Both the position numbers and the translations under genes were made by a program. This document shows, piece by piece, positions 47,296 through 63,790 of a DNA stretch of 64,000 nt; position 1 is the first letter of the stretch; each line of letters starts with the position of its first letter. The stretch comes from Victivallales bacterium (GTDB taxonomy: Bacteria > Verrucomicrobiota > Lentisphaeria > Victivallales > Victivallaceae). The notes below the pieces were generated by a model. It saw only the letters and a list, made by a program, of their open reading frames with translations, was not told the DNA's origin and did no database searches. Where the stretch lies: contig CAXXKX010000005.1 in assembly GCA_963676655.2 (NCBI GenBank), positions 171,955-235,954 on the forward strand, read 5' to 3'.

Positions 47296-47304
47296 CTCAA
47301 TAAT

Positions 47305-47332
47305 TCCTAATTTCTAATTCCTAATTTCTAAT
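47305..47332. repeat. Heptamer tandem array (TCCTAAT/TTCTAAT x4)
   Basis: Fills the gap between 47340..48113 and the transposase ATG 47295. Same orientation as 41883-41910. Confidence 0.8.
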
Positions 47333-47339
47333 TCCGGCT

Positions 47340-48687: not shown

Positions 48688-48758
48688 AGTCACGAATTTC
48701 ACTAATTTCACTAATTTTTTTTAAAAACCTATTCGTGTTATTCGTGCGATTTGTGGCT
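48688..48758 (-). repeat. Triple-heptad leader element, full hairpin copy A (upstream of gam-like gene)
   Basis: Plus strand: agtCACGAATttCACTAATttCACTAAT - loop - ATTCGTGttATTCGTGcgATTTGTGGCT. 21 nt to ATG 48666. Confidence 0.8.
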
Positions 48759-48768
48759 AACTTTTTTT

Positions 48769-48873
48769 GTATTCATGCCTATCGCCGTTCGTCGTACGGA
48801 CCGGCATCCTTTGTATTCATGCCTATCGCCGTTCGTCGTACGGACCGGCATCCTTTGTATTCGGGGCAGCAGC
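48769..48873. repeat. 44-bp tandem repeat, about 2.3 copies
   Basis: Unit GTATTCATGCCTATCGCCGTTCGTCGTACGGACCGGCATCCTTT at 48769-48812 and 48813-48856, with a partial third copy. Internal stems ATGCC/GGCAT and CCGT/ACGG. Confidence 0.85.
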
Positions 48874-48973
48874 TGGCGCAATAGCCGGGCATGCCGTTGC
48901 ATTCCATTTCCGCGCGACATTTACGCGTTCTGTTCCGCCTGATCCACCGCTGATAATTGTTTAATCTTTCCAT
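48779..48973 (-). CDS. Small Cys-rich ORF running into a 44-bp tandem repeat (true 3' end uncertain)
   Basis: MERLNNYQRWIRRNRTRKCRAEMECNGMPGYCASCCPEYK... ATG 48973 is preceded by AAGGAG and by a leader-element half copy. Confidence 0.3.
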   Translation of the reverse strand: MERLNNYQRWIRRNRTRKCRAEMECNGMPGYCASCCPEYKGCRSVRRTAIGMNTKDAGPYDERR

Positions 48974-48987
48974 TACGCTCCTTTTTT

Positions 48988-49047
48988 AGCCACGACAATG
49001 AAATGAGCGCGAGCACCGCGCAGGGCAATCGCACGAATCGCACTAAT
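48988..49047 (-). repeat. Leader element, interrupted half copy F
   Basis: AGCCACGAC ... GGGCAATcgCACGAATcgCACTAAT, with a GCGCG-agcac-CGCGC hairpin inserted. 14 nt to ATG 48973. Confidence 0.55.
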
Positions 49048-49071
49048 TATTTTTTTTTACGCTCACCACCC

Positions 49072-49362
49072 TTAAAACCCGTCCATTATGTTCAGTCTTT
49101 GCAAATGCCGGTGAACCGTTGACTTGCTGCAATCAAGTATTCGCGCGATCTGTTCGTATGTGAGTTCCGGCTTCTCCAGTTTCAGGGATATTGTCCGCCA
49201 GCGCTTCGGATCGTTCGCGGCGAAGTCTCCGGCTGCTTTGAGCTGGTGAAAATCGAAATATCCATCGCCCGGGATATTCAGCTGATCCGGCTCGATCACC
49301 TGGTCCGGCGTCTGGTTGTCAATTGCTATCTCCTCGATGTAGTTAATGTGTTTCACAACCAT
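49072..49362 (-). CDS. Small HTH protein (C-terminal HTH; possible Mor/C-like activator)
   Basis: 96 aa from MVVKHINYIEE. C-terminal HTH TYEQIARILDCSKSTVHRHLQRL. The longer track ORF (to 49503) has an implausible R/D/H-rich N-terminus. Confidence 0.5.
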   Translation of the reverse strand: MVVKHINYIEEIAIDNQTPDQVIEPDQLNIPGDGYFDFHQLKAAGDFAANDPKRWRTISLKLEKPELTYEQIARILDCSKSTVHRHLQRLNIMDGF

Positions 49363-49529
49363 ACCCCCTTGACGATGATCCCGGCACCGATCCCGGCCAG
49401 GAAAACAAAGAACCAGCTGATCAGCAACAGCGCCGTCTCGCTCCAGATGATCCGGTTCATATTGGTGGCGATTTTCGCGCGCTTCCTGCGTCGTTCCCGC
49501 CAAAACTTTACCGCCTCAAAATCAATCAT
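49353..49529 (-). CDS. 58-aa single-TM protein (not in ORF track)
   Basis: MIDFEAVKFWRERRRKRAKIATNMNRIIWSETALLLISWFFVFLAGIGAGIIVKGVWL. GGAG lies 6 nt upstream. Preceded by leader half-element 49546-49573. Confidence 0.5.
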   Translation of the reverse strand: MIDFEAVKFWRERRRKRAKIATNMNRIIWSETALLLISWFFVFLAGIGAGIIVKGVWL

Positions 49530-49545
49530 TGTTGTCTCCTTGATT

Positions 49546-49573
49546 AGCCACGAATTTCACGAATGGCACGAAT
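49546..49573 (-). repeat. Leader element, 3'-arm-only copy D
   Basis: Plus strand: agCCACGAATttCACGAATggCACGAAT (sense strand ATTCGTG x3 then GGCT). 16 nt to ATG 49529. Confidence 0.8.
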
Positions 49574-49580
49574 TTTTTAC

Positions 49581-49609
49581 CCTGGGAGCGCGTGGCTCCA
49601 GCCGCGCAT
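49581..49609 (+). repeat. GC hairpin element type c
   Basis: CCTGGGAGCGCGTGGCTCCAGCCGCGCAT. Reverse complement of 54220-54248. Confidence 0.75.
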
Positions 49610-49624
49610 GAAGGCGCCTTCAAG

Positions 49625-50227
49625 TTATTCATCACCGGCCCCCTTTCCGGCTCGCCGCGCTTCATTATTCCGGCGTAGTTCGTCTTTCCACGATTTGTCA
49701 GGGTCCTGCCAGCCAAGTTTTTCGGCAAATAACAGACGAAACGGTTTACCGGCTTTACCGTTAGCGGCAAAGCTTACGGTTCCGGAGCTCGAGTCTAAAG
49801 CTTCAGCCAAAGCTTGTTGATTAATGCCAAGTTCAGCGTAAATTTTCTTAATGGAATCTTCCACGTTTAAGCCGGTTAAATCAACCTTGTTTTTGATCTC
49901 TTCGGCAGTGAGCCTGATGCCCTTTTCCGGGCCAAATTTTTCTCGCTTCTTCGGAGGCTTTCCCGGCGCCCCTTTTTTGGTTTCGCCGTTCGGAGTCCGG
50001 CTCCCACTTTTGGGGCTTTCCCCTGGGAGCGCGGACGTCTCGTCCGCATTCGCCGGTCGGAGCCCGGCTCCCACGGTTTCATTGTCTTTACTTCCTCCTT
50101 GGATATTGCCTCTTTGTTCCAGCGTTCCGCTGGCCTCTCCGCTTTGCTCCGTCCGTGTTGGATATTGGATATTCAATCCGAAGATTTGCCTCAACTCTTC
50201 CATCGACCCTTCAAATTTGAATCTCAT
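49625..50227 (-). CDS. Early protein with C-terminal HTH and a repeat-derived linker
   Basis: 200 aa. HTH-like IYAELGINQQALAEALDSSSGTVS. Residues VGAGLRPANADETSALPGESPKSGSRTPNGE are encoded by the 93-bp composite repeat 49982-50074. Confidence 0.55.
   Translation of the reverse strand: MRFKFEGSMEELRQIFGLNIQYPTRTEQSGEASGTLEQRGNIQGGSKDNETVGAGLRPANADETSALPGESPKSGSRTPNGETKKGAPGKPPKKREKFGPEKGIRLTAEEIKNKVDLTGLNVEDSIKKIYAELGINQQALAEALDSSSGTVSFAANGKAGKPFRLLFAEKLGWQDPDKSWKDELRRNNEARRAGKGAGDE
49982..50074 (+). repeat. GC hairpin composite a-b-a (93 bp) inside ORF 49625..50227
   Basis: TTCGCCGTTCGGAGTCCGGCTCCCAC ... CCCCTGGGAGCGCGGACGTCTCGTCCGC a TTCGCCGGTCGGAGCCCGGCTCCCAC. Confidence 0.8.
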
Positions 50228-50367
50228 GCTGCTTTACCTCCTGAGTTTGGTTTGTAATATCTCCGGTCCTTAAATTCCTGCTGCTTGCCGCGATTCCAAT
50301 TTGCCACCGGCCGGAAGTACCCGCAGACGCGACTGTATACTTCTGTTTTCGCTCCGCATTTATTCAT
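50224..50367 (-). CDS. 47-aa NrdD C-terminal (glycyl-radical domain)-like mini-protein
   Basis: MNKCGAKTEVYSRVCGYFRPVANWNRGKQQEFKDRRYYKPNSGGKAA. ATGA overlaps at both ends and GGAGG 7 nt upstream. The RVCGY...WN.GK..E..DR pattern is as in class III RNR C-termini. Below the track cutoff. Confidence 0.6.
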   Translation of the reverse strand: MNKCGAKTEVYSRVCGYFRPVANWNRGKQQEFKDRRYYKPNSGGKAA

Positions 50368-50696
50368 TGATTACCTCCATTTTCCTGCCACGAATCGCAC
50401 GAATTGCACGAATCATTTTTTGAAAGTTTTTTTAAGTTTTTATACAGCTCGTCAAAGTCCTTGCCGGACGCGACGACCATGCCGCTCTCTTTCACTTTTA
50501 CCCCGTCCGGCCCCATGACCAGCGCGACCGTAACCTTGCCATCGACGGCGGCCTCAAGCAGCGCATTGACGATCGCGCCGATCCAGGCCAACTCGGTCAT
50601 CTCATCTTGCTCTATCTGCTCCAGCCATAAATTATTGATTCTGTCTACTTCCGCCTGGTCCATTTCTATTCCCTTTTCGTGGTTAAGTTTGTACAT
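50364..50696 (-). CDS. Hypothetical early protein
   Basis: 110 aa. The last ~17 aa (NDSCNSCDSWQENGGNQ) are encoded by leader half-element 50386-50413. Confidence 0.5.
   Translation of the reverse strand: MYKLNHEKGIEMDQAEVDRINNLWLEQIEQDEMTELAWIGAIVNALLEAAVDGKVTVALVMGPDGVKVKESGMVVASGKDFDELYKNLKKLSKNDSCNSCDSWQENGGNQ
50386..50413 (-). repeat. Leader element, 3'-arm-only copy E
   Basis: Plus strand: tgCCACGAATcgCACGAATtgCACGAAT. 18 nt to ATG 50367 of the NrdD-like mini-ORF. Confidence 0.8.
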
Positions 50697-50728
50697 AACT
50701 CATAACTCATAACTCATAACTCATAACC
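50694..50728. repeat. Heptamer tandem array (CATAACT x5)
   Basis: The first unit contains the ATG (minus strand) of 50364..50696. The array fills the whole intergenic gap. Confidence 0.85.
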
Positions 50729-50730
50729 GG

Positions 50731-51111
50731 CTAGAACCCTAGCCGCCCGTCCCCGTTTCCCAGGTCCAGTTCCCTGACCCTGGGAGCGCGACGCTCCAGC
50801 GCCGCTTCTTTATTGCCGCAGTGGCCTGCGGCGCTCCCAGGGGCTCCCGTCGTACGGAGCCGGAGACGCTTTTCCAGTTCCAGCAAGCCGGACCAGGTAA
50901 TCATTACCCGGGCGTAATCCCCGGCCATCCCGTTGCGTTCCCAATGCGAAACCCGCAGCGTCATCCATTCATGAATAAATGCCGCCGGACGCGGTTTCCC
51001 GCCCTCCAGCAACCCGACTTCCCGGCACTGCTTAAATATCCGCTTCGGGCCGGAATCTATCCCGTGCCGTTGCAGCATCTTTGAAGCAAATTGCAGAGTC
51101 ATCGTATTCAT
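50731..51111 (-). CDS. Hypothetical early protein (weak KilA-C/antirepressor-like N-part; repeat-derived tail)
   Basis: 126 aa. The C-terminal ~40 aa are translated from GC-hairpin repeats 50779-50861. Confidence 0.45.
   Translation of the reverse strand: MNTMTLQFASKMLQRHGIDSGPKRIFKQCREVGLLEGGKPRPAAFIHEWMTLRVSHWERNGMAGDYARVMITWSGLLELEKRLRLRTTGAPGSAAGHCGNKEAALERRAPRVRELDLGNGDGRLGF
50779..50844 (+). repeat. GC hairpin elements types e + d
   Basis: CCTGGGAGCGCGACGCTCCAGCGCCGC ... TTGCCGCAGTGGCCTGCGGCGCTCCCAGGGG. Confidence 0.75.
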
Positions 51112-51200
51112 AATTCAAATCCTCTTTCAGCCACGAATTGCACTAATCTCACTAATTAAAAAACTATTCGTGTCATTCGTGCGATTCGTGGCTCCTTTCA
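51109..51200 (-). repeat. 92-bp direct repeat copy 1 (stop codon + leader hairpin + SD + ATG)
   Basis: Identical, except 1 nt, to 51450-51541. Confidence 0.9.
51129..51193 (-). repeat. Leader element, full hairpin copy B
   Basis: agCCACGAATtgCACTAATctCACTAAT-taaaaaact-ATTCGTGtcATTCGTGcgATTCGTGGCT. 17 nt to ATG 51111. Confidence 0.85.
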
Positions 51201-51452
51201 AAATGTTATACTTTCGTTGAAATGGCATTCGATGCAGAAGTAGTTCGCTACTTCCGCGCCCATGCCGCACTCATCGTAATCGTCGCTGGCGAAGACCATC
51301 GGCTCGCCGCATTCCGGACAGACCGGAGTACAGCACAGAGTGTCGTTTTCGCATTCCTCGCAATGGAGCGTCTTGTGCAGGTCGCTCTTATCGCAGTGCT
51401 TGCACTCCTCGTACCGCGATAAATACTCTTCCCAACTGATTAATCTGTCCAT
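51198..51452 (-). CDS. Cys-rich zinc-ribbon small protein
   Basis: 84 aa. CKHC...CEEC...CPEC...CIEC pairs. Confidence 0.6.
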   Translation of the reverse strand: MDRLISWEEYLSRYEECKHCDKSDLHKTLHCEECENDTLCCTPVCPECGEPMVFASDDYDECGMGAEVANYFCIECHFNESITF

Positions 51453-51541
51453 AATTCTAATCCTCTTTCAGCCACGAATTGCACTAATCTCACTAATTAA
51501 AAAACTATTCGTGTCATTCGTGCGATTCGTGGCTCCTTTCA
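51450..51541 (-). repeat. 92-bp direct repeat copy 2
   Basis: Identical, except 1 nt, to 51109-51200. Confidence 0.9.
51470..51534 (-). repeat. Leader element, full hairpin copy C (identical to B)
   Basis: Same 65 bp as copy B. 17 nt to ATG 51452. Confidence 0.85.
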
Positions 51542-51583
51542 CTTTTCCTCCTGGCCGGTACGACCGGCCGCGATGTTATTTTT

Positions 51584-51611
51584 CTTACTGGCAACTGGTA
51601 ACTGGCAACTG
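51584..51611. repeat. Heptamer tandem array (NNAACTG x4)
   Basis: CTTACTG GCAACTG GTAACTG GCAACTG, directly after the Ner-like stop. Confidence 0.75.
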
Positions 51612-51614
51612 ATT

Positions 51615-51809
51615 TCAAATATCCAGCAATTCCACCGGCTCACAGCCGAGGATTGCCGCATAACGCTTCGCTACCCGGACCGTTTTAATCCCGCGACTCA
51701 TTTGCAGCGAGACGTTGGACGTTCCGACTTTCATTCTGGCCGCGATGTCGACCGGCCGAATCCCGGCCCGCTCGATCGCCTGGCATAATTTTGTTTTTCT
51801 TTCGCTCAT
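51615..51809 (-). CDS. Ner/Cro-like small HTH regulator, first gene of the leftward early operon
   Basis: 64 aa. IRPVDIAARMKVGTSNVSLQMSRG is the HTH. AGGAGG lies upstream. Divergent from 51939..52361. Confidence 0.6.
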   Translation of the reverse strand: MSERKTKLCQAIERAGIRPVDIAARMKVGTSNVSLQMSRGIKTVRVAKRYAAILGCEPVELLDI

Positions 51810-51938
51810 ATTACCTCCTGGATTATAGCGTTAGATATATAAAATATAACGATCATTATATTTTAAACCAAAAAAATTTACTTCCCTTTTCCCGGAGTTA
51901 TATTATGAATATCAACCAACCTGTTAAGGAGGCCAGAT
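51810..51938. promoter_or_regulatory. Divergent control region with a perfect operator-like palindrome
   Basis: AAAATATAA-cgatca-TTATATTTT at 51841-51864, between the divergent starts at 51809(-) and 51939(+). TATAAT lies just upstream of the minus-strand SD. Confidence 0.5.
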
Positions 51939-52361
51939 ATGTCTGAATGGAAACACGCCGCTGAACAGATCAAGGCGGCAATAAAGGAAAACCAAAAAGA
52001 CTCGGAGAAGCGTTTTAATTGGCTTAAAGAATATGCTCGCCGAGGAAATCCGTGTTCACATATTGCAGCCGGGCAAGCACTTGCTTCTGCTGTGATAGCC
52101 GCCTCGGTTCTTGGGGGCAAAGATGAAATCATTTTAAAACTCATTTACAACCCTCGCGAGGGACAAATTGGCCGTGAAGACTTCCGTTTTGACTTTGCAC
52201 GCCACGCTCTTTTGCTATTGCTGGACGGCTACGAAAAGGATAATTTGAGCGCGCTGAGCAGCCAGCTTGATGCCGCAAGCGGGGCCGTGCTGCTCTCAAT
52301 GCTCCTTGAGGCCTTGGCTTACGAATCCGGCCAATTAGCGGAAGATATTCAATCTCCTTAA
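51939..52361 (+). CDS. Hypothetical protein divergent from the early operon (positional repressor/immunity candidate)
   Basis: 140 aa. Strong SD AAGGAGG 6 nt upstream. Helical-looking, with no HTH recognised. Confidence 0.5.
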   Translation: MSEWKHAAEQIKAAIKENQKDSEKRFNWLKEYARRGNPCSHIAAGQALASAVIAASVLGGKDEIILKLIYNPREGQIGREDFRFDFARHALLLLLDGYEKDNLSALSSQLDAASGAVLLSMLLEALAYESGQLAEDIQSP

Positions 52362-52455
52362 TGGCGCGTTCAATAAATTTGGAAGACTTACCATAAGGCA
52401 AGGTGCTGTTTGCCTCAATTAAGAGACCAAGTATATTGTTGACCTGCTTTCTCAT
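52141..52455 (-). CDS. Possible small ORF convergent with and overlapping 51939..52361 (doubtful)
   Basis: Strong SD AGGAGAAAGAGG before ATG 52455. The first ~40 aa look plausible. The rest is R/P-rich and antisense to the plus-strand ORF. Confidence 0.2.
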   Translation of the reverse strand: MRKQVNNILGLLIEANSTLPYGKSSKFIERAIKEIEYLPLIGRIRKPRPQGALRAARPRLRHQAGCSARSNYPFRSRPAIAKERGVQSQNGSLHGQFVPREGCK

Positions 52456-52610
52456 AACCTCTTTCTCCTTTTTTTGATTAAAATAAAACTACGGCCTGGT
52501 ATTAAAATATAAGGTTCCCTATAGAAAGTCAAGCCTTTTTTTATAAAAAGTTGATTTTTTTTAAACTTGGTGTATCTTAATATTCACCTACACAAAATAA
52601 TGAGCGGGAT

Positions 52611-53003
52611 ATGGATCTTGTCAAAAAAACCGAAGAGGCTTTTCATAAAGCAGTACAACGCGCCGGCGGCAAGCTGGTAAGACTTCAGGAAAAAACCGGA
52701 GTAAGTTATCCCATTATTAATCGGCTAAACAGTGGTAGAAATAAGTTTAAAGACGTTTCCTTACAAACGGTTGAAAAGCTTTTTCCTGAACTTCAGGCAT
52801 ATTTTTTCCGGGATGAATATCCGAAGCCGGAACTTGCTGGCTTTGACCATTTAACAAGATCACAACAAAAACTTTTAAAAATGATTATCGAGCTGGATGA
52901 GGACGGGCAGCTTGATGCACTTGAGGCGCTTAGCCGGATTAGTGAGCGCCGCCGTCTGGTTGGAGAAGTGGAAGCTTCAAAACACCAGGACCTGGCAGGC
53001 TGA
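52611..53003 (+). CDS. XRE-like HTH regulator
   Basis: 130 aa. HTH LQEKTGVSYPIINRLNSGRNKF. Confidence 0.6.
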   Translation: MDLVKKTEEAFHKAVQRAGGKLVRLQEKTGVSYPIINRLNSGRNKFKDVSLQTVEKLFPELQAYFFRDEYPKPELAGFDHLTRSQQKLLKMIIELDEDGQLDALEALSRISERRRLVGEVEASKHQDLAG

Positions 53004-53049
53004 AGCGCTTGGCCTTCGGCTTGTCGGCCCCAACGCGCCCCGGCGTTTT

Positions 53050-53077
53050 CCTGGGAACGCGGACGTCTCGTCCGGCC
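53050..53077 (+). repeat. GC hairpin element type b
   Basis: CCTGGGAACGCGGACGTCTCGTCCGGCC. Confidence 0.7.
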
Positions 53078-53144
53078 TTAAGGCGTCCCGCCTTTCCCCG
53101 CTATCCCGCTACGAGAAACTCCGTCTCGACTTTTTCGACCGCCC

Positions 53145-53195
53145 TTGACAAATCCCCGGTGACGCTATAAAATAATACTGTCACAAACTTGTCAA
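53145..53195 (+). promoter_or_regulatory. Sigma70-like promoter embedded in nested inverted repeats
   Basis: TTGACA (53145-53150), 17-nt spacer, TAAAAT (53168-53173). Flanked by TTGACAA/TTGTCAA (53145/53189) and GTGAC/GTCAC (53159/53180). Confidence 0.5.
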
Positions 53196-53230
53196 TATAA
53201 AAACCAGGAGGACTGCCGGCCAGGGCCGGA

Positions 53231-53272
53231 ATTATGAGTTATGAATTATGAGGTATGAATTATGAGTTATGA
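53231..53272. repeat. Heptamer tandem array (RTTATGA x6), inverted relative to 50694-50728
   Basis: ATTATGA GTTATGA ATTATGA GGTATGA ATTATGA GTTATGA, just upstream of the SD of 53293..54153. Confidence 0.85.
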
Positions 53273-53292
53273 ATTAAATCCAGGAGGAACCC

Positions 53293-54153
53293 ATGAAAAA
53301 AACCATCGTCTTATTCTCTCTCACATTCGTGTTATTCGTGCAATTAGTGGCTGGCTCCCCGGATTCTTCCAGTTACTCTTACTTGGGCAAGCCGATTACC
53401 GAAAAGCGCTTCAAGTTGTTTTACAAATATTTAAAAGACTTTTATTATGCTGATGTATCCGGAAAAGTTTATTGCCGAGAATATTATACGATATTAAAGA
53501 ATATGCCAACCAAGGCGAAAGCGGGAGATTTTGGCGAGGTAAGCGGCAAAGTATTCCAGGTTGTCGACGATAACCGGATTTTGCTGAATGTGTCATATTC
53601 GTACATAAAAAAGGTTAAGCGCTCTTTAGGCCCGAATGTTATCAATACGGCGCTTTCTTCTGATGAAATAGACATGCGGCCAGCGTCTAGAGAAGAAGAG
53701 GGCGTAGATAATTCCGCCCTGAGACGGAACAATGAAAATTATAGTTATGAGGAAAAGCTCATTAAGGCGCATTATTTGTCAAGCGTAATTCTGCCGGACG
53801 CGAAAAAGCTGATCAACGGACGCGATTTTTCCTGTGTGGCCGTTATGAAAGGAGTCTTTCATTATCAAACGACGCTCAACGCCAGCAATTCGATTCCCGA
53901 GTTTGAATTATTGCATCCGGTTACCGAAGCGGAATTTAAATCGTTTCTGGACAAAGGAAATCAGCTGTATTATTTTAAGAAAAAATACACTCCGGCCAAA
54001 TACAAAACCTGCCCTAAATGCAAAGGCGTCGGCGCGGTTCCGGTTAAGCCGCATAGTGTGAGCATGAAAAAATGTCCGGCCTGCAACGGCAAACGAAAGA
54101 TACAAACTCAATTTGCTAAGTTGGAATATTTGCGATTGCCTTTGAATAAATAA
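53293..54153 (+). CDS. Secreted protein with C-terminal DnaJ-type CxxCxGxG zinc finger; moron candidate
   Basis: 286 aa. Signal peptide MKKTIVLFSLTFVLFVQLVAGSP, with its hydrophobic core encoded by repeat copy 53325-53352. C-terminus CPKCKGVGAV...CPACNGKRKI. Confidence 0.65.
   Translation: MKKTIVLFSLTFVLFVQLVAGSPDSSSYSYLGKPITEKRFKLFYKYLKDFYYADVSGKVYCREYYTILKNMPTKAKAGDFGEVSGKVFQVVDDNRILLNVSYSYIKKVKRSLGPNVINTALSSDEIDMRPASREEEGVDNSALRRNNENYSYEEKLIKAHYLSSVILPDAKKLINGRDFSCVAVMKGVFHYQTTLNASNSIPEFELLHPVTEAEFKSFLDKGNQLYYFKKKYTPAKYKTCPKCKGVGAVPVKPHSVSMKKCPACNGKRKIQTQFAKLEYLRLPLNK
53325..53352 (+). repeat. Leader-element arm inside a CDS (copy J)
   Basis: ATTCGTGttATTCGTGcaATTAGTGGCT, translated as FVLFVQLVA (signal-peptide core of 53293..54153). 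Confidence 0.7.
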
Positions 54154-54180
54154 TTTACAAATTTACAAATTCTTAATTTA
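54152..54180. repeat. Octamer tandem array (AATTTACA-like x3.5)
   Basis: AATTTACA AATTTACA AATTCTTA ATTTA. The inverted partner is at 54669-54695. Confidence 0.7.
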
Positions 54181-54187
54181 AAAAAAC

Positions 54188-54213
54188 GCCCCGGATTTTC
54201 GGGGCTTTTTTTT
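54188..54213 (+). terminator. Rho-independent terminator
   Basis: GCCCCG-gatttt-CGGGGC followed by TTTTTTTT. Confidence 0.8.
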
Positions 54214-54219
54214 GCCTTT

Positions 54220-54248
54220 ATGCGCGGCTGGAGCCACGCGCTCCCAAC
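54220..54248 (-). repeat. GC hairpin element type c
   Basis: ATGCGCGGCTGGAGCCACGCGCTCCCAAC. Confidence 0.75.
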
Positions 54249-54289
54249 TCATCCCTCATAACTCATCCCTCATAACTTATCTCATCCCC
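54246..54289. repeat. 14-bp tandem repeat (AACTCATCCCTCAT x~3)
   Basis: AACTCATCCCTCAT AACTCATCCCTCAT AACTTATCTCATCCCC. Confidence 0.75.
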
Positions 54290-54309
54290 TCCGTGGTTAA
54301 ATGCGCCTT

Positions 54310-54339
54310 TATGCCGCAGTGGCCTGCGGCGCTCCCAAC
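54310..54339 (-). repeat. GC hairpin element type d
   Basis: TATGCCGCAGTGGCCTGCGGCGCTCCCAAC (stem GCCGCAG/CTGCGGC). Confidence 0.75.
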
Positions 54340-54402
54340 TCCCCCTTTCATCCTTTGCAGCTATGCTGCATCTTTAATCCTTAAGCCTCCCCCGCTCCCA
54401 AT

Positions 54403-54430
54403 ATTCGTGTCATTCGTGCGATTAGTGGCT
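54403..54430 (+). repeat. Leader element, orphan 3'-arm copy G
   Basis: ATTCGTGtcATTCGTGcgATTAGTGGCT followed by AAAAAAACGGA. No ORF follows. Confidence 0.7.
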
Positions 54431-54586
54431 AAAAAAACGGAACGCATAAAATACTTGCCTTTAGCTATTTAACTTCTTTCAACACAAAAAAACAGAACGT
54501 GCGGCCCCTTATAAACGCGGGTTTATTTCAAAACTTGTTTTGAAATAACAAAGCTCCTGCGCCCGTCTTTTGCGGTCCGGGGGAAT

Positions 54587-54613
54587 GCGGACGAGACGTC
54601 CGCGCTCCCAGGG
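54587..54613 (-). repeat. GC hairpin element type b
   Basis: GCGGACGAGACGTCCGCGCTCCCAGGG (stem GCGGACG/CGTCCGC). Confidence 0.75.
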
Positions 54614-54668
54614 TGTCGGCAAGCGACGGGGCGGAGCGCGCCTTGGCCGCCGGTGGCGGCAATGGGTC

Positions 54669-54695
54669 AATTTGTAAATTTGAGAATTTGTAAAT
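54669..54695. repeat. Inverted partner of the AATTTACA array
   Basis: AATTTGTAAATTTGAGAATTTGTAAAT. Confidence 0.7.
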
Positions 54696-54722
54696 GACAA
54701 AAACAGCGAGTCCTGCACGTGT

Positions 54723-57563: not shown

Positions 57564-57567
57564 ACAA

Positions 57568-57633
57568 AAACAATCGCCGTTCGGAGTCCGGCTCCCACGG
57601 AAACAATCGCCGTTCGGAGGTTGGCTCCCACGG
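57568..57633 (+). repeat. 33-bp tandem duplication of a type-a GC hairpin element (terminase/portal gap)
   Basis: AAACAATCGCCGTTCGGAGTCCGGCTCCCACGG then AAACAATCGCCGTTCGGAGGTTGGCTCCCACGG. Confidence 0.85.
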
Positions 57634-57650
57634 TACTAAATGGAGGTTTT

Positions 57651-59333
57651 ATGAATTGGTTAACTAACGTTTATCATCGGTTCGCGCCGATGAAAAGTCC
57701 GGAGAGTTCCGGCGGGAAAACCGCGCCGAAATCCACGAGCGCCCAGGAATTTGACGAACTTTTCGAGTCCTGGAACTCGCTGACCGGCGTCAAGTTGACC
57801 GGGACGCGGATTCAGAGCATTTTAAAAGACGCTGACGCGGGCAACTGCTCCGACCAGGCGGCATTGATCGAGGTTATCCAGGAAGCGGAACCGATTATTG
57901 GGGGTCACCTGGATACCAGGAAACGCGCGGCGCTGGCCGTGCCGTGGCGGATCGAGGGCGGCAGCCAAAAGGACCGGGACGATTTAACCAGGATGTTCGA
58001 ACGGATCAAAATCCAGAAGCTTCGCCGCCACTTGCTCGACGCTATCGCCCAGGGTTACGCCTGTGCCGGGTTGATCTGGAAACCCGGCGGCGGCGAGATT
58101 ACCGGCTGGACCGAGGTACACCCGACAAACATCCTGTTCGACGGCGGCAGCAATGCCGGATTGTTGACCCGGTCTGGAGAAAAGGCGCTGGCGGTCTGGC
58201 ATCCGAATCAATTCCTGATGCACATTCATAAAGCCAAACCGGGCCTGCCGTGCCGGGGCGCGCTGCTCCGGACCTTGATCTGGAGTTACTTTTTTAAATT
58301 TTACGGCGTCAGGGATTACGCCAGGTTTATCGAGCGGTTTGGAATGCCGTTTATCGTTGCCAAGTTAAGCGATGACGATTTCTCTAACGATGAGAAGACT
58401 GCCCGGATTATTAACGCGATCCGTGCGCTCGGCAGCTCCGGCGTCGCGGCGGTAACCAAAGCGACTGATCTGGAAAATCAGGCGGTAGCCGCTGGCGGTA
58501 AAGCTGAATTTTTCAACTGGTTCAAATATCTGGATGACGTTTTCGCGCTGGTGATCCTGGGCCAGATAGCTTCGAGTAAGGAAGCCAACGGCATGAGCAA
58601 CGGTGATCTGCAAAGCGACGTCAAAGATGACCTGACCGCGTCCGACAGCGAAATGATGGAGGAAAGCTTTAACACCGGATTGGTTCAGCCACTGGACCGG
58701 TTCCGAAACGGTCGGGAAACCGGGCTCCACATTATTTTCGCGTCGGAACCGGCCGAAGATTTACAAGACAAAGCCGACCTGGTGACAAAGCTGGCCGGGG
58801 CCGGTTACAAAGCCAAACGCGACTGGGTCGAAAAAGTTTTCGAAATCCCGCTGCAAGAGGAAAAAGAACCGGAAGTCGACAAAGATAAATCCCAAACGCT
58901 TAAAACGCGCGAAAAATCGCCGAAGAGCCCCGACCCGTCCGATGACCCGGATAAGGCGTTAAACGCGCTTTCTGATGCTGATGTGGCCAATCCAGGGCCG
59001 AATATGGCGAATGCCTTAATTGCGAAAGAGGAGCTGATCGCGCAGCTGACGGAAAACACGCTTCGGGAACTCTTCGTCAACAGCGACACGATGACGGAAT
59101 TCTATTTTCCGCTGACGGCCGCGATCCGGAGCAGCTTTAAAGAAGTTGACCCGAACGATCCCGAGCTCGTCGAAAAGTTTGTCGCGGCCACTGACGGCTT
59201 CTTTGAAAAATATCCGTCGCTTTACGAAGAATTCGACAGTTCCGGACTGGAGAAAGCCGTTTCCGGCGCGATGCTGGCGGCCAACGTCAACGGCTATACC
59301 AACGCCAAAAACTTAACGAAAGGTTCAAAATGA
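57651..59333 (+). CDS. Portal protein (Mu gp29 / DUF935 family)
   Basis: ATG 57651 follows GGAGG (the track start 57621 lies in the repeat). Size and position fit, and ..FIERFGMPFIVAK.. is a DUF935-like core. Confidence 0.75.
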   Translation: MNWLTNVYHRFAPMKSPESSGGKTAPKSTSAQEFDELFESWNSLTGVKLTGTRIQSILKDADAGNCSDQAALIEVIQEAEPIIGGHLDTRKRAALAVPWRIEGGSQKDRDDLTRMFERIKIQKLRRHLLDAIAQGYACAGLIWKPGGGEITGWTEVHPTNILFDGGSNAGLLTRSGEKALAVWHPNQFLMHIHKAKPGLPCRGALLRTLIWSYFFKFYGVRDYARFIERFGMPFIVAKLSDDDFSNDEKTARIINAIRALGSSGVAAVTKATDLENQAVAAGGKAEFFNWFKYLDDVFALVILGQIASSKEANGMSNGDLQSDVKDDLTASDSEMMEESFNTGLVQPLDRFRNGRETGLHIIFASEPAEDLQDKADLVTKLAGAGYKAKRDWVEKVFEIPLQEEKEPEVDKDKSQTLKTREKSPKSPDPSDDPDKALNALSDADVANPGPNMANALIAKEELIAQLTENTLRELFVNSDTMTEFYFPLTAAIRSSFKEVDPNDPELVEKFVAATDGFFEKYPSLYEEFDSSGLEKAVSGAMLAANVNGYTNAKNLTKGSK

Positions 59334-60406
59334 AAATTACCGATCTGAAAAGATATATCGTTCTCAGCGCGGCGCCACTTTTTGAAATTGGCGAGGAAAT
59401 CCCGGAGGAATTTCCGGTATTTGAATACGGCAAAACCGAATTCATTAAAGACGGCAAGCCCGATTTTTATACATTCAGCGAGAGCGACGCGGATAATATC
59501 ATTGCGCTTTTTGCCAGGAAAGGCAACGACGGGATTATCGACTACGAACACCAGCTGCTGCGTTCAATGTTTAACGGGTTGCCGGTCCCTGCCGCCGCCT
59601 GGATCAAGAGAGTTTACAAAATGCCCGACGGTCTTTGGTGTTCCGCCTCCTGGACACCAAAGGCCCGAGGGTTTCTGGAGAACGGGGAGTATAAATATAT
59701 CTCGCCGGTTTTCAAGGCTTCCAGAACAGGGAAAAATATCACTGAATTATTCAATATTTCACTAACCGCCAGACCGTCGACGAATAACCAGCGAAGTTTG
59801 ATAGCCGCTGACGATTTTACCGAAGGCTTTGACGGGCTCGAAACAAATAAACAACCAAAAAGAGGAAGCAAAATGAACGAAATTCTGCTTTTGCTCGGAC
59901 TGACGGCGCTGGCCGATTCCGACGATCAGGCCGCGATTAACAGCGGCATGAAAACCGCAATCCAGGGGCTCCTGGACGGCAAAAAGGCAACCGACGATTT
60001 CCTGGCGCTGCATGACGCTGACTGCCTGGATGTCGTAACCGCGAAGATCGGCCAGATGGTTCCGGCCACTGAAAAGATCGATCTCGAGAATAAAATCAAA
60101 CAGCGCGACGCTGATGACGCGGTTATGCAGTATCTCTCGGACGGCAAACTGACGGACGCTCAGAAAGACTCCGCGAAAGTTTTCGCGCTGAACGATCTGG
60201 AGGCGTTCAAAAAATTCTATGACGCCGCTCCGGTAATCGTGCCGAATAACAACGGCGTAACCAACCTGGAAAATCCAAACGGCGGTGACGGCGACGACAG
60301 CGAAGTAAAAGCGTTGTCCGACTCGGAAATTGAGATTCTGGGTAATCTCGGCCTCGAGGGAGATGCTCTCAAGGCAGCCGCTAAAGACCTTAAGAAAGGA
60401 GCGTAA
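59330..60406 (+). CDS. Head protease/scaffold (Mu gpI-like)
   Basis: 358 aa. ..FPVFEYGKTEFIKDGKPDFYTFSESDADNIIALFARKGNDGIIDYEHQ resembles the Mu I family. ATGA overlap with the portal stop. Confidence 0.65.
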   Translation: MKITDLKRYIVLSAAPLFEIGEEIPEEFPVFEYGKTEFIKDGKPDFYTFSESDADNIIALFARKGNDGIIDYEHQLLRSMFNGLPVPAAAWIKRVYKMPDGLWCSASWTPKARGFLENGEYKYISPVFKASRTGKNITELFNISLTARPSTNNQRSLIAADDFTEGFDGLETNKQPKRGSKMNEILLLLGLTALADSDDQAAINSGMKTAIQGLLDGKKATDDFLALHDADCLDVVTAKIGQMVPATEKIDLENKIKQRDADDAVMQYLSDGKLTDAQKDSAKVFALNDLEAFKKFYDAAPVIVPNNNGVTNLENPNGGDGDDSEVKALSDSEIEILGNLGLEGDALKAAAKDLKKGA

Positions 60407-60409
60407 ATC

Positions 60410-61036
60410 ATGGCTGAACTCACTGCGAACCTGAAAACTTTTGAGCGGCAGATCAATCTGCGCCGTTTTCCTGTCAAGGATGGCGAAATCATGTATGCAG
60501 GCGGCATCGGCGCGGTCAATACGTCCACCGGCGAAGCCGAAATGGCGTCCGACAGTGCGAACCTGGTTGTCGGCGGCCGCGTCGAATCTTATATCGACAA
60601 TACCAACGACGGCCTTTACGTCAACTTGAAAGTTGGCTGTTTCCGCTGGAACAATTCGGAGACAAACGCGGTTACCGTCGCTAACCTGAACCGGATCGTC
60701 TATATCGAAGATGACAACACGATCAGCTCCAACCCGGGAGATAACGCGGTTATCGCCGGGGTTCTGGTCGAAATCGAAACCGCCGGTGTCTGGGTTGACA
60801 ATACCCCGAGCGGTATTGCCGCCGCCCTCGGCATTATTCTGCCGGAATCCGCTTTCAGCCAGGCGGATGCCGTTGCCGACTTGACTGATAACAGCAGCGG
60901 AACCAGCGGAGGTGATACAATTGCTGAAGTCACCGACGTCGCTTCCGCCGCTAACGCGATTGCTACCCTCGCCGCCAAGTTTAACGCCACTTTGGCAGAG
61001 CTTCGCCAGGGCAGCTTTATCGCAACGGCTGAGTAA
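60410..61036 (+). CDS. Head-associated protein, hypothetical (DUF2190-like decoration protein?)
   Basis: 208 aa, between the protease/scaffold and major capsid genes. The beta-rich N-part has GVLVEIETAGVWV. Confidence 0.4.
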   Translation: MAELTANLKTFERQINLRRFPVKDGEIMYAGGIGAVNTSTGEAEMASDSANLVVGGRVESYIDNTNDGLYVNLKVGCFRWNNSETNAVTVANLNRIVYIEDDNTISSNPGDNAVIAGVLVEIETAGVWVDNTPSGIAAALGIILPESAFSQADAVADLTDNSSGTSGGDTIAEVTDVASAANAIATLAAKFNATLAELRQGSFIATAE

Positions 61037-61065
61037 TTAACCTCTAGTCCGGAAAGGAAATACAA

Positions 61066-61968
61066 ATGGATATTAACAGAGGAAATATGAACGCCCTCTT
61101 TGCCGGGTTCAAAAGCAATTTTCAAGAGGGTATGGGAATGGCAGATAAAAGCTATCTGCGCTTCACCACTACCGTCAAATCTACTCATGCGTCAGAAATC
61201 TTTCCGTTCCTGGAACGTTTCGGCGGTATGCGCGAGTGGATCGGCGACCGGCAGATCAAATCCGTCGCCAGCCATAAGTATACCATCGTTAACGACGAAT
61301 TCGAGGATACCGTCGGCGTCAAGCGCAACGACATTGAGGACGATTCTTACGGCCTGTATAAACCGATCCTCGAAGATCTGGGCTTTAACGCCGAAGACCT
61401 CTGGCGGGAACTGGCTGAGGCGGCTTTGTCCGGCGGCTTTGCGGCCGAATGGATTGACGAGCTGGCCTTTTTCAGCGATACCAGAACCTACGGCGAGAAT
61501 ACGATCGCGAATCTCGGTTCCGCCGCTTTGAGCGCGACGGCATTTAACGCGGCTCAAACCGCGATGATGCAGTATAAAGGGCATAACGGCAAATATCTGG
61601 GAGTTAAGCCCGATCTGCTGGTTGTCGGCCCGAGCAACAGGGGAACCGCTTTCGATATCCTGAAAAACGAACTGGTTATCAAAACTTCCGGCAGCAACGC
61701 CGGGGTTATTCAGAACCAGAATGCGTTCGAGGGAACCGTCGACTACCTGGTTGTCGACAGCCTGGGATCGGAATGGTACCTGGCTTCGACCAAACGGCCA
61801 CTGAAGCCTGTCGGCGTTCAACAGCGTGTTATGCCGACCCTGACTAAAATGGATCAGGAAACCGATGAAAACGTATTCATGAAAAGTCAGATAATCTACG
61901 GCACCCGGGCGCGTGGCGCCGGATTCCTGACGTTCCCGCACTTGATCTATGCAAGTGATCCGTCTTAA
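61066..61968 (+). CDS. Major capsid protein (Mu gpT-like)
   Basis: 300 aa. ..EIFPFLERFGGMREWIGDRQIKSVASHKYTIVNDEFEDTVGVKRNDIEDDSYGLYKP matches the gpT family signature region. Confidence 0.85.
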   Translation: MDINRGNMNALFAGFKSNFQEGMGMADKSYLRFTTTVKSTHASEIFPFLERFGGMREWIGDRQIKSVASHKYTIVNDEFEDTVGVKRNDIEDDSYGLYKPILEDLGFNAEDLWRELAEAALSGGFAAEWIDELAFFSDTRTYGENTIANLGSAALSATAFNAAQTAMMQYKGHNGKYLGVKPDLLVVGPSNRGTAFDILKNELVIKTSGSNAGVIQNQNAFEGTVDYLVVDSLGSEWYLASTKRPLKPVGVQQRVMPTLTKMDQETDENVFMKSQIIYGTRARGAGFLTFPHLIYASDPS

Positions 61969-61992
61969 TCGTTAACCTCCTTTTTTGTTAGT

Positions 61993-62016
61993 GGGTTCCG
62001 GCTTTGGCCGGAACCC
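61993..62016 (+). other. Strong GC hairpin just after the capsid gene (attenuator/stability element candidate)
   Basis: GGGTTCCGGC-tttg-GCCGGAACCC, a 10-bp perfect stem with no U-run. Confidence 0.45.
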
Positions 62017-62034
62017 CGTTCAGGAGTATGAATT

Positions 62035-62460
62035 ATGAGCTATATCACATTTGAAGACGTAACGGATCGAATTCCGTTGGCCAACCTGGAGAAGCTTTGC
62101 AAGGTTTCCGGAGACGAACTGACGGAAATGGTCGACGCGATAATCGGCCAGGCCGAAAGCACGGTCAACGGTTACGCCGCGAGTAAATACGCGTTACCGC
62201 TGCCGGTCTCGCCGCTGCCCGGGCGCTGGAGCCTGGCGATCGCGGAACACGAAATTTACAAACTCGGCCCAGGCGGCACGGTGCCGGAAAAAATTCGCAA
62301 AGGGTTTGAAGACACAATGAAAGAGCTGCGCGATCTGGCCGCCGGGACAATCTCGCTGCCGGTCGGCGACGACGGGACGGAACCGGAACAAAAGGTCGGG
62401 GCCGCGATCAAAGTCGCGAGCAATACGATGATAATGGGTGATTCAATTTACGGATACTGA
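62035..62460 (+). CDS. DUF1320 (Mu gp36-like) head-tail connector protein
   Basis: 141 aa. MSYITFEDVTDRIPLANLEKL...AIIGQAESTVNGYAASKYALPL is the typical DUF1320 N-terminus. Confidence 0.7.
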   Translation: MSYITFEDVTDRIPLANLEKLCKVSGDELTEMVDAIIGQAESTVNGYAASKYALPLPVSPLPGRWSLAIAEHEIYKLGPGGTVPEKIRKGFEDTMKELRDLAAGTISLPVGDDGTEPEQKVGAAIKVASNTMIMGDSIYGY

Positions 62461-62464
62461 ATTT

Positions 62465-62492
62465 AACCACTGAAAGCACGGAAAACACGGAG
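62465..62492 (+). repeat. Degenerate 5'-arm-like copy I
   Basis: aaCCACTGAAagCACGGAAaaCACGGAG followed by TTTTTTT. Confidence 0.4.
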
Positions 62493-62540
62493 TTTTTTTA
62501 TTAAGTAAGGTTCAAAAGGAATACTTTCCTTTTCCAACAT

Positions 62541-62598
62541 TCCTAATTTCTAATTGCCCTTCGCTATGCTCGCGCTTATATATATCCTAATTTCTAAT
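62541..62598. repeat. Two TCCTAATTTCTAAT dimers separated by 30 bp
   Basis: 62541-62554 and 62585-62598. Same orientation as the arrays at 41883 and 47305. Confidence 0.75.
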
Positions 62599-62605
62599 TA
62601 TAAAA

Positions 62606-63157
62606 ATGACAACGATAACCATAACACCGGATACAACTTCGCTGCAAACAATTGCCGGACACGTTTCAAACCCCTCGGAACGACGCGAGCTCTTCGCGAT
62701 GATCAGGGGCGCGATGAAAAACTCACTAAAAAAAGCGGCCCTGGCGAAAAAGAAAAGCGGTTTTTGGCTTGAGGTAGCCAAGACTGTCACCGGCGAATCG
62801 GACGCGAATTCGGCAATCGCCGGGGCGACTCATCCGGCGGCGGCGATCCGGCAATTCGGCGGCACGATCAGCGCGCCCGGTCAGGACTCGCTTGCCACCG
62901 GCGCGAAATACCTGTCGATCCCGGTAAGCGACCGGGCAAAAGGCAAAAGCCCTAAGCAATTCCCCGACCTGTTTTTTGTAATGGCCAGCGGCGGCGGGAA
63001 ATATTTATTCGACGCGGCCCATGAGGGCGAATTGATGTACGTGCTGAAAAAATCCGTGACCCATCCGGCCGATCCGTGGGTGCCGTCAGAATCCCAAATC
63101 GGAAAAGACCTCCGGAAAGCAACTAAAGCCTGGCTGGACAGCCGGAAAAGAAATTGA
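62606..63157 (+). CDS. Late-operon assembly protein, function unassigned (possible virion-morphogenesis/head-completion protein)
   Basis: 183 aa. Position after the DUF1320 gene is as in Mu-like head modules. Confidence 0.5.
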   Translation: MTTITITPDTTSLQTIAGHVSNPSERRELFAMIRGAMKNSLKKAALAKKKSGFWLEVAKTVTGESDANSAIAGATHPAAAIRQFGGTISAPGQDSLATGAKYLSIPVSDRAKGKSPKQFPDLFFVMASGGGKYLFDAAHEGELMYVLKKSVTHPADPWVPSESQIGKDLRKATKAWLDSRKRN

Positions 63158-63163
63158 AGAATG

Positions 63164-63258
63164 AACCACGAAAAGCACAAAAAAAAACACGAAAAAGATA
63201 GTTTTGAATTTCCGCTTTGCGGAATAATAAATTCGTGACATTCGTGCGATTCGTGGCC
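63164..63258 (+). repeat. Leader element, full copy H (degenerate 5' arm, perfect 3' arm)
   Basis: aaCCACGAAAagCACAAAAaaaaaCACGAAA ... TTCCGC-ttt-GCGGAA ... ATTCGTGacATTCGTGcgATTCGTGGCC. 16 nt to ATG 63275. Confidence 0.75.
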
Positions 63259-63773: not shown

Positions 63774-63790
63774 ACTCATAACTCATAACT
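63774..63790. repeat. Short heptamer array (ACTCATA x2.4)
   Basis: ACTCATAACTCATAACT between gene 63275..63709 and ATG 63805. Confidence 0.6.

Follow-up and report, generated by a model that had tools for sequence, protein, structure and literature searches.

Triple-heptad arrays at gene junctions of a Victivallales Mu-like prophage: probable ORF-less derivatives of a widespread GxxExxY mini-element

The Correia elements of Neisseria are short intergenic copies without an open reading frame (ORF), bounded by inverted repeats of ~26 nucleotides (nt), which are co-transcribed, form hairpins that RNase III can cut and vary between relatives. Intervening sequences (IVS) carrying a small ORF of the 'S23p'/four-helix-bundle family were reportedly described by Ralph & McClelland in 1993 from the 23S rRNA of Leptospira and other bacteria. 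Among phages, repeats at gene starts and junctions include the start-associated and extended start-associated sequences (SAS/ESAS) of the cluster K mycobacteriophages, the stoperators of cluster A and the promoter early stem-loop (PeSL) cassettes of T4-type phages. Here we analyze a stretch of 64,000 nt from Victivallales bacterium (assembly GCA_963676655.2, contig CAXXKX010000005.1, positions 171,955-235,954, forward strand; hereafter the window), in which a Mu-like prophage carries arrays of three 7-nt units (heptads) spaced at 9 nt, hereafter arms, at many of its gene junctions. With a probability of roughly three in four, we interpret these arms as gene-less or single-end derivatives, comparable to miniature inverted-repeat transposable elements (MITEs), of a widespread element coding for a GxxExxY protein, which supply the downstream gene with its ribosome-binding site (RBS). 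The arms are identical with the inverted arrays that flank GxxExxY genes, their position is intercistronic, the RBS is delivered together with the element, and their presence or absence differs between close relatives.

Set against the described systems, the copies in the window resemble the Correia elements in being short, ORF-less, dispersed, bounded by inverted repeats, able on prediction to form hairpins and variable among close relatives; they differ in that their ends consist of three 7-nt units at 9-nt spacing, that they carry an RBS and replace the stop-to-start spacer, and that their full-length partner encodes a PD-(D/E)XK-type protein of ~125 amino acids (aa). That partner, the complete GxxExxY element, recalls the 23S rRNA IVS, likewise ~0.5 kb in length with terminal inverted repeats around a single ORF of ~120 aa inside a transcription unit; the repeat stem of the IVS is excised by RNase III, and these sequences are multi-copy in the same kinds of phyla. 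The GxxExxY element differs from them in its cargo family, its sites in mRNA operons rather than rRNA, and its heptad-array repeats. With classical MITEs the window family shares terminal inverted repeats, small size, lack of an ORF and many copies; no target-site duplication was found at elements of this family. A partner with matching ends exists, and its protein is an uncharacterized member of the PD-(D/E)XK class rather than a known transposase. Repetitive extragenic palindromic (REP) sequences and their doublets (REPINs) are similarly dispersed, short and extragenic, often occur as inverted doublets, have a lineage-specific consensus and a conserved core that a single dedicated protein, with its gene at another place in the genome, presumably keeps fixed; however, REPs are palindromic with a GTAG head and their partner RAYT is a Y1 (HUH) transposase, as opposed to direct-repeat arms and a PD-(D/E)XK protein, and no RAYT-like cluster is present among the neighbors of arm-bearing loci. 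Free-standing homing endonuclease genes (seg/mob of T4, and those of PD-(D/E)XK homing enzymes such as I-Ssp6803I and I-Bth0305I) also place a small nuclease gene between cistrons, sporadically among relatives, but have neither bounding inverted repeat arrays nor ORF-less hairpin derivatives. Finally, SAS, stoperators and PeSLs (the last being portable regulatory cassettes that promote shuffling) likewise place transcription-oriented repeats in short gaps directly 5' of many genes; these are confined to, and conserved in, one phage cluster, whereas the window arms are shared with the chromosomes of many phyla, are missing from most relatives and are tied to a protein-coding element. As far as we could find, the element appears to be undescribed though of a familiar, MITE-like or IVS-like kind. 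Its architecture is unusual: the ends are heptad arrays, the cargo is of the PD-(D/E)XK type, and the element both replaces the spacer between cistrons and brings an RBS.

A scan of the window with the pattern ATTMGTG-N2 in three units, allowing up to three mismatches, recovered 11 array matches, all between 48691 and 63255, against an expectation of 0.00 from 100 dinucleotide-preserving shuffles. A looser pattern adds a twelfth arm of the CTCCGTG/TTCCGTG type on the minus strand (62468-62492), giving a total of 12 arms of three 9-nt-spaced heptads, all within 48.6-63.3 kb. They are distributed over the following copies:

48688..48758, minus strand: ORF-less inverted pair, arms 48691-48715 (-) and 48731-48755 (+) around a 15-nt AT loop; the sense arm ends in GTGAC and is followed by an A-rich stretch, AAGGA and ATG 48666 of the gam-like gene.
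48987..49047, minus strand: interrupted single arm, ATTAGTG-CG-ATTCGTG-CG-ATTG[...]TCGTGGC with an interruption of ~31 nt (two-heptad match at 49032-49047; Tandem Repeats Finder row 49027-49047), then TAAAAAAGGAGCGTA and ATG 48973.
49546..49573 (heptads 49549-49573), minus strand: single arm ATTCGTGCCATTCGTGAAATTCGTGGC, then TAATCAAGGAGACAACA and ATG 49529 of a 58-aa ORF.
50386..50413 (heptads 50389-50413), minus strand: single arm ATTCGTGCAATTCGTGCGATTCGTGGC, then AGGAAAATGGAGGTAATCA and ATG 50367, which opens a 47-aa NrdD-like mini-ORF whose orthologous mini-ORFs match PF13597.
51129..51193, minus strand: ORF-less inverted pair, arms 51132-51156 (-) and 51166-51190 (+) around a 9-nt loop, beginning 5 nt past the last stop-codon base of the gene for an 84-aa Zn-ribbon protein; then TGAAAGAGGATTTGAATT and ATG 51111.
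51470..51534, minus strand: ORF-less inverted pair, arms 51473-51497 (-) and 51507-51531 (+), an identical twin of the 51129 element, flanks included: TGAAAGGA ... TGAAAGAGGATTAGAATT-ATG 51452.
53325..53352 (heptads 53325-53349), plus strand: arm inside ORF 53293-54153.
54403..54430 (heptads 54403-54427), plus strand: orphan single arm ATTCGTGTCATTCGTGCGATTAGTGGCT, followed by AAAAAAA, with no gene start downstream.
62465..62492, minus strand: single arm CTCCGTGTTTTCCGTGCTTTCAGTGGTTAAA of the TTCCGTG/CTCCGTG type, antisense to the rightward genes and just past the stop of ORF 62035-62460.
63161..63258, plus strand: internally deleted element, with a degenerate left arm 63164-63200 (CACGAAAAG CACAAAAAA..CACGAAAAA), a 30-nt remnant with a small hairpin, the right arm 63231-63255 plus GGCC, then AAAAAAGGATAAGAAA and ATG 63275.

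The four paired copies are inverted with their GG ends facing outward, and the single arms, apart from the antisense arm (62465-62492), are of the right-end type; the three on the sense strand of the leftward early operon (48987..49047, 49546..49573 and 50386..50413) have an RBS after them. In the seven copies that precede a start codon the arm is separated from the ATG by an A-rich stretch and a Shine-Dalgarno (SD) sequence, with the last G of the third heptad lying 24 nt (48666), ~16 nt (48973), 19 nt (49529), 21 nt (50367), 20 nt (51111), 20 nt (51452) and 19 nt (63275) upstream of it. A preliminary description of the window had listed ten copies, all of which we found in place by reading the sequence and by pattern scan, and had noted no triple array in the 37 kb of host DNA; this part indeed has none, nor any ATTCGTG/CACGAAT heptamer, where ~4.5 are expected. 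Its ending GTGGC for the second arm of seven copies does not apply to the 48688 copy, and its rule that orientation follows transcription is obeyed by six of the seven single arms but broken by that at 62468, and taken alone is not significant. The arm at 53325-53349 encodes, in frame, F-V-L-F-V-Q-L-V-A after MKKTIVLFSLT, the hydrophobic core of a signal-peptide-like N-terminus; the ORF has no counterpart in the closest relative of the prophage (L241, see below), and a repeat end may here have been recruited into coding sequence.

The motif had been taken to be specific to the prophage, which is true only inside the window. A search of one genome per GTDB species (596 Gb) for its exact core ATTCGTGNNATTCGTGNNATTCGTGG, with 22 fixed bases, found it in at least 120 stretches, against ~0.07 expected by chance; these come from many phyla, and the genes next to the motif are mostly housekeeping genes. 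Among the matches listed, 32 are from Planctomycetota, 27 from Bacteroidota, 22 from Acidobacteriota, 16 from Chloroflexota, 11 from Desulfobacterota and relatives, three from Verrucomicrobiota/Lentisphaerota and nine from other phyla, with Bacillota, Actinomycetota and Alpha-, Beta- and Gammaproteobacteria nearly absent. In a position matrix built from 204 arms of other genomes, conservation is limited to the three heptads, the next G and a weak Y-T-A-A-A tail, and the spacer dinucleotides, loops and flanks vary freely; lineage variants with the same layout include TTTCGTG, TTCCGTG, ATCCGTG, CTCTGTG and ATTCGCG. Of 51 pairs at genome loci, 46 have their GG ends outward and five inward, with spacers of ~6-184 bp except for two overlapping or degenerate pairs. 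The genes adjacent to arms are ordinary ones (peptide deformylase, GatB, aminoacyl-tRNA synthetases, Hsp70, transporters), and by the simple, rather crude ORF calls used for the genome neighborhoods the arms are not preferentially oriented with respect to genes. An exact scan of IMG/VR likewise recovered many viral contigs with dispersed arms at a G+C content of 38-69%, some as inverted pairs and some directly 5' of an SD and ATG. Near-identical copies in the same Planctomycetota metagenome-assembled genome (MAG) can differ in the number of 9-nt units per arm (three vs five; L229 and L238), resembling microsatellite slippage. Searches for a known family gave no answer: Rfam 15 has no match at gathering score in the whole window and only chance-level scores (E > 0.5) in 48-64 kb, no relation to tRNA or tmRNA was found, a BLAST search of a full copy against phage and plasmid records returned no match, with low-complexity filtering as the probable cause, and a literature search with the sequence strings returned no hit.

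To identify genes associated with the arms beyond the phage, every ORF from 130 motif-selected loci was clustered. The top cluster, tied with ABC-transporter ATPases, comprises GxxExxY proteins, which match the Pfam family PDDEXK_3 and NCBIfam TIGR04256 ('GxxExxY protein'), and six of the eight GxxExxY genes in it are directly bracketed by arms. Another constant companion protein could be rejected, the largest remaining clusters containing only ABC-transporter ATPases and response regulators. The association holds from the protein side too: when a GxxExxY protein alignment, with the DNA motif ignored, was used to retrieve 80 metagenome loci, strict triple NNNNGTG arms lay no more than 200 bp from the gene in 33 of them. 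A flexible pattern (CGCG variants allowed, heptad spacing of 8-10 nt) finds outward arms flanking the gene on both sides in 32 of the 75 evaluable loci and on a single side in another 18; elsewhere in these loci the background is 0.07 per kb per strand. Most of the remaining loci show other or more degenerate heptads by eye (e.g. ATTCGCG, TTTCGCG). Outward pairs 250-750 bp apart enclose a GxxExxY ORF recognized by a hidden Markov model (HMM) in 43 of 70 cases, with several more on the other strand. The canonical unit reads AAC-(CACGAAA-NN)x3, an ORF of ~370-400 nt and (TTTCGTG-NN)x3-GTT, 425-490 bp in all; as a working definition we require three W-T-Y-C-G-(T/C)-G heptads at 8-10-nt spacing, then GG plus Y/W and an A-rich run.

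The proteins encoded by these units are ~122-133 aa in length and display an invariant D...E-x-K motif of the PD-(D/E)XK nuclease type in their alignments. A survey of the PD-(D/E)XK superfamily lists the function of the GxxExxY family as unknown. It is very large, with 7,979 of 8,000 scored candidates at E <= 1e-10, and its members are highly identical across phyla. No solved structure of a GxxExxY relative is detectable by sequence, and our literature search found no paper describing the genomic setting of the family.

The position of the right array relative to the next gene reproduces that of the arms in the prophage. In 16-17 of 35 evaluable ORF-bearing elements it ends 5-33 nt 5' of an ORF that has the same orientation and a length of 90 aa or more, the typical right-end leader being GTGGTTAAAAA-(N)-AGGAG-N7-9-ATG. 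The preliminary description was right in seeing a single repeated and oriented module of arm, A-rich stretch, SD and ATG, and the link of this module to starts recurs in loci selected by protein. At the left end, one subfamily ('MNHE') has an ORF that opens ATG-AAC-CAC-GAA-A, so that the left array is translated as (His-Glu-x)3, and its ATG overlaps the upstream stop as ATGA. The 63161 copy of the prophage opens with ATG-AAC-CAC-GAA-AAG, 3 nt past the end of the stop codon that precedes it, and its start, MNHEK(H..)HEK, is a GxxExxY N-terminus; since it then runs into the right arm, it is best described as an internally deleted 'MNHE' element.

Units of the MNHE type also lie inside operons of restriction or defense type (L327, L335/L336, and L297 as compared with L337-L339), with layouts such as SNF2 helicase-DUF4391-[GxxExxY]-N6/N4 methyltransferase and DUF4391-Abi_2-GxxExxY; in L297 the unit is downstream of an unannotated 221-aa ORF, and in L336 a second left end directly after the first unit suggests a tandem arrangement. 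In a Cryomorpha MAG (L171) 14 arms with a period of ~125 bp surround a GxxExxY gene. A few outward pairs (L223 824-1239, L013 5320-6084) enclose other small genes, namely an antitoxin-like plus DUF2283-like pair, recognized by eye, and a helix-turn-helix (HTH)-like ORF; hence arms may bracket other cassettes as well.

Comparison of filled and empty sites clarifies which sequence belongs to the element. In L327 a GxxExxY unit stands between a DUF4391 gene and a methyltransferase gene, which in L337 and L338 (DUF4391 94% and 88% identical to that of L327) are adjacent without it. Homology is lost a few codons 5' of the upstream stop and picks up again precisely at the ATG of the downstream gene; a native stop-plus-SD spacer of 29 nt has given way to the unit, which has an SD of its own. 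As this SD spacer is delivered with the element, the 'leader' of arm, A-rich stretch and SD is the element's 3' end.

Gam (Pfam match), an AAA+ MuB-like protein and a transposase of the MuA type mark the prophage as Mu-like. Among named relatives of this transposase, the best is from a Victivallaceae MAG of the Lentisphaerota, and a search of IMG/VR with the window MuA found no close relatives; the exact protein is not on record. The host part of the window (1-37000) encodes TrpB, an arylsulfatase and ABC permeases, and synteny with L241 and L243 places the end of the prophage near 37.1 kb, next to a D12-type methyltransferase homologue (37356-38228). We compared six related Mu-like prophages (L241, L242, L243, L324, L325 and L326) with syntenic early regions and MuA 51-87% identical to that of the window. 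Conservation at orthologous junctions, which the preliminary description had made a point to check, was not borne out: against 12 arms in the window, L241 (the closest relative, MuA 87% identical) has three to four, L325 has one in the phage and a pair in the adjoining host DNA, and L242, L243, L324 and L326 have none in the arm scan. L241 shares the 50386..50413 arm at the same junction (7031-7055), has a long-loop version at the 51129 junction and carries a 93%-identical copy of 63161-63258 at a different junction. It is without the 51470 element: before the Zn-ribbon gene it reads AGGAGGAAAAGT-TAGA-ATG, where the window has AGGAGGAAAAGT-[GAAAGGA-hairpin-TGAAAGAGGAT]-TAGA-ATT-ATG, so that, compared with L241, the element with its own SD sits between the older SD (AGGAGG) and the Zn-ribbon ATG. 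The junction 3' of this gene (TGA-AAGGA-hairpin-SD-ATG) recurs in full upstream of the same gene, and the GAAAG(A)GGA repeat around the two copies has been copied with them and is not a target duplication. At the neighboring junction between the HTH and Zn-ribbon genes (51540-51613) the window has, besides the triple-heptad element, 64 nt more than L241, comprising AGTTGCC x3 (sense) and a GGCCGG-TCGTA-CCGGCC hairpin.

These observations can be joined in the following scheme. The complete element would have the arms as inverted-repeat ends around its one gene and would lie between two co-directional genes, with the left array at or within the start of its own ORF, often ATGA-coupled to the upstream stop, and the right array leading via G-Y-T/A-AAAA, an SD and a spacer of 7-9 nt to the downstream ATG. 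By taking over the native stop-to-start spacer it supplies the RBS of the downstream gene. The prophage copies would then represent four ORF-less, MITE-like pairs, five single right ends and one antisense arm, in which the sense-strand right end would be retained because the RBS of the next gene depends on it, while the left end and the ORF would be dispensable. We infer that the elements spread as selfish DNA without target duplication, that a GxxExxY nuclease acting in trans recognizes the heptads, and that the copies in the phage rely in trans on those of the host. More tentatively, and at somewhat less than even odds, the family could be a new kind of operon-resident mobile cassette, which lands at a stop-start junction, takes translational coupling from upstream for its small PD-(D/E)XK nuclease and hands the next gene a fresh RBS, making the insertion nearly non-polar, with the three heptads per end serving as nuclease sites and the ORF-less copies as trans-mobilized, portable 'hairpin + RBS' junctions that could be copied from one gene boundary to another.

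Several results weigh against this interpretation. The window has no GxxExxY gene (six-frame HMM search, no match below E = 1), so its copies are filed as ORF-less derivatives and not as complete members; the arm-bearing viral loci have none either, and a trans-acting source accordingly has to be assumed. The AlphaFold model of the GxxExxY protein is poor (predicted local distance difference test score, pLDDT, 64) and gives weak matches only, all of them PD-(D/E)XK nucleases (including I-Bth0305I, Hjc and T7 endonuclease I), and the identity of the proteins across phyla may partly reflect hitch-hiking on mobile defense operons. There is no consistent direct repeat indicating target-site duplication at 14 canonical elements, nor at L327, where the filled site swaps sequence rather than showing a simple insertion, and spread might be by recombination instead of transposition. 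Of the ORF-less arms in genomes, 14-18% stand just 5' of a gene start against 5-7% in the control, a 2- to 3-fold excess obtained with no SD demanded; when one is demanded, ~5% precede a start, which is the control level. The tight linkage to starts in this phage also owes something to its short intergenic gaps. Furthermore, the 84-aa Cys-rich Zn-ribbon gene (51198-51452; L241 6001-6252; L325 6390-6617) is present only in the three arm-bearing prophages and missing from the four arm-less ones, in what is a small and phylogenetically non-independent sample.

The alternative that survives best, although we consider it unlikely, is that the paired arms are selected for RNA processing or stability: in the early, polycistronic mRNA they would form long hairpins with imperfect pairing, at which an RNase III cut or a block to 3'-exonucleases would uncouple the cistrons; comparable cases are the early RNase III sites of T7 and the stems of rRNA intervening sequences. 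The preliminary description had proposed that the paired arms form an imperfect helix of ~28 bp, and this stands for three of the four full copies, which are predicted to fold more stably than shuffled sequences (51129 copy, -27.8 kcal/mol, z -4.2; 51470 copy, -27.4 kcal/mol, z -4.3; 63161 copy, -28.7 kcal/mol, z -3.4), but not for the 48688 copy, whose weak predicted fold (-13.2 kcal/mol, z -0.8) marks it as degenerate. In addition, when copies are paired, their variable NN positions are complementary 59% of the time against 37% expected, and the arrays of complete elements would enclose the whole ORF in a long-range stem. Yet half of the window copies are single arms, for which a helix is impossible and no hairpin better than shuffles is predicted; the arms of genomes show no orientation preference and no Rfam family matches; and structure alone leaves the identity of the heptads across phyla unexplained while loops and NN positions vary freely. 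RNase III processing explains neither the single arms nor the cross-phylum conservation. As a consequence of the element, processing of the three stable hairpins is nevertheless plausible: if transcribed, the intact pairs would form imperfect hairpins of 25-28 bp just 5' of an open RBS, plausible substrates for RNase III, whose sites are stems of ~20 bp or more, or protectors of 3' ends, which could be cleaved or could stabilize or insulate mRNA segments. Every predicted fold leaves the SD and AUG outside the helix, and on these models the hairpins are not SD-occluding operators; an operator like that of Com/mom of Mu, as the preliminary description had suggested, would occlude the SD or AUG until opened by a small Zn-finger protein.

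A considerably less probable explanation is that the GxxExxY protein is a DNA-binding regulator with the arrays as its operators, through which it would control its own gene and neighboring ones, the ORF-less copies then being its regulon and not selfish DNA. The arrays do bracket the gene tightly on both sides, and three direct repeats resemble cooperative binding sites. Nevertheless, the genes flanking ORF-less copies show no functional theme, near-identical operons and phages can differ in whether they have the arrays, lineages differ in copy number and heptad subtype in the manner of a repeat family, and the catalytic D...ExK residues are invariant.

Least probable, and in our view quite remote, is a platform for a regulator of the phage itself, in which the Zn-ribbon or an HTH protein would bind the heptads as RNA or DNA, as a translational operator or stoperator: seven sense-oriented copies do stand 16-24 nt 5' of start codons and the Zn-ribbon gene lies between two identical copies, but its co-occurrence with arms rests on three related phages, the three HTH proteins of the window phage have homologues in arm-less relatives, the arrays recur in chromosomes and around GxxExxY genes, and none of ~210 other arm-bearing loci encodes the small early proteins of the phage, which also makes the stoperator-like repressor sites envisaged earlier unlikely. 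Inspection of the sequence further rejected sigma-70, Bacteroidetes-type, extracytoplasmic function (ECF) and sigma-54 promoters, DnaA boxes (five of eight specified positions fit, one of them on a variable NN position), MraZ-type GTG repeats (which have a 10-nt period, MraZ not being restricted to these phyla), Chi-like arrays, Type III restriction sites (CGAAT), RNase E sites, complementarity to 16S rRNA, and mimicry of tRNA T-loops or anticodon loops. In sum, the original finding is real, and its description was in part sharper than its interpretation.

Other repeats occur near the arms. A second family found only in the prophage has a CTGGGAGCGC head and a short, variable, GC-rich hairpin (e.g. 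GCGGACG-TCT-CGTCCGC); its nine window copies of ~30-40 nt each are on both strands (44213, 49582, 50023, 50780, 50831, 53051, 54238, 54329 and 54602), some inside ORFs (e.g. 49625-50227), and L241 has it at 3492-3525, 7345-7416 and 14678-14710. Tandem 7-nt arrays of CTCATAA/TTATGAG lie in intergenic positions beside gene starts (50694-50727, 53229-53276, 54246-54281, 63774-63790 and 62026-62039), without constant orientation to the genes; given their period of seven, they place TAA on one strand, and TGA and ATG on the other, in all three frames. Heptad arrays of AATTAGR/TTCTAATTCCTAATT are present at 41881-41911, 47301-47335, 62542-62555 and 62586-62599 of the window and at 6743-6783 and 13026-13060 of L241; those at 47301-47335 and 41881-41911 abut, or lie within a few nt of, the starts of MuA and a small gene (sense AATTAGG AATTAGA ... 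ATG), and such arrays may supply an SD-like AGGA. Beside the 48688 element, a perfect tandem duplication of 44 bp (2.2 copies, 100% identity; 48766-48862) lies in the 64-aa ORF 48779-48973, and a 33-bp x2 repeat is found at 57568-57633.

The reading of the arms as derivatives of a GxxExxY element ties the GxxExxY/PDDEXK_3 family to a defined DNA signature and an exact intercistronic position, and thereby provides a concrete hypothesis for a nuclease acting on three heptads per end. It would also account for a class of intergenic repeats in Planctomycetota, Acidobacteriota, Bacteroidota, Chloroflexota and their phages. For annotation, the arrays flag junctions with an RBS of foreign origin, as well as small ORFs and N-termini derived from repeat ends, of which the signal-peptide-like stretch at 53325-53352 would be an example. 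In terms of phage biology, the prophage would present the case of a temperate phage whose early operon has been colonized by mini-elements of host type, with entire stop-to-start junctions being duplicated.

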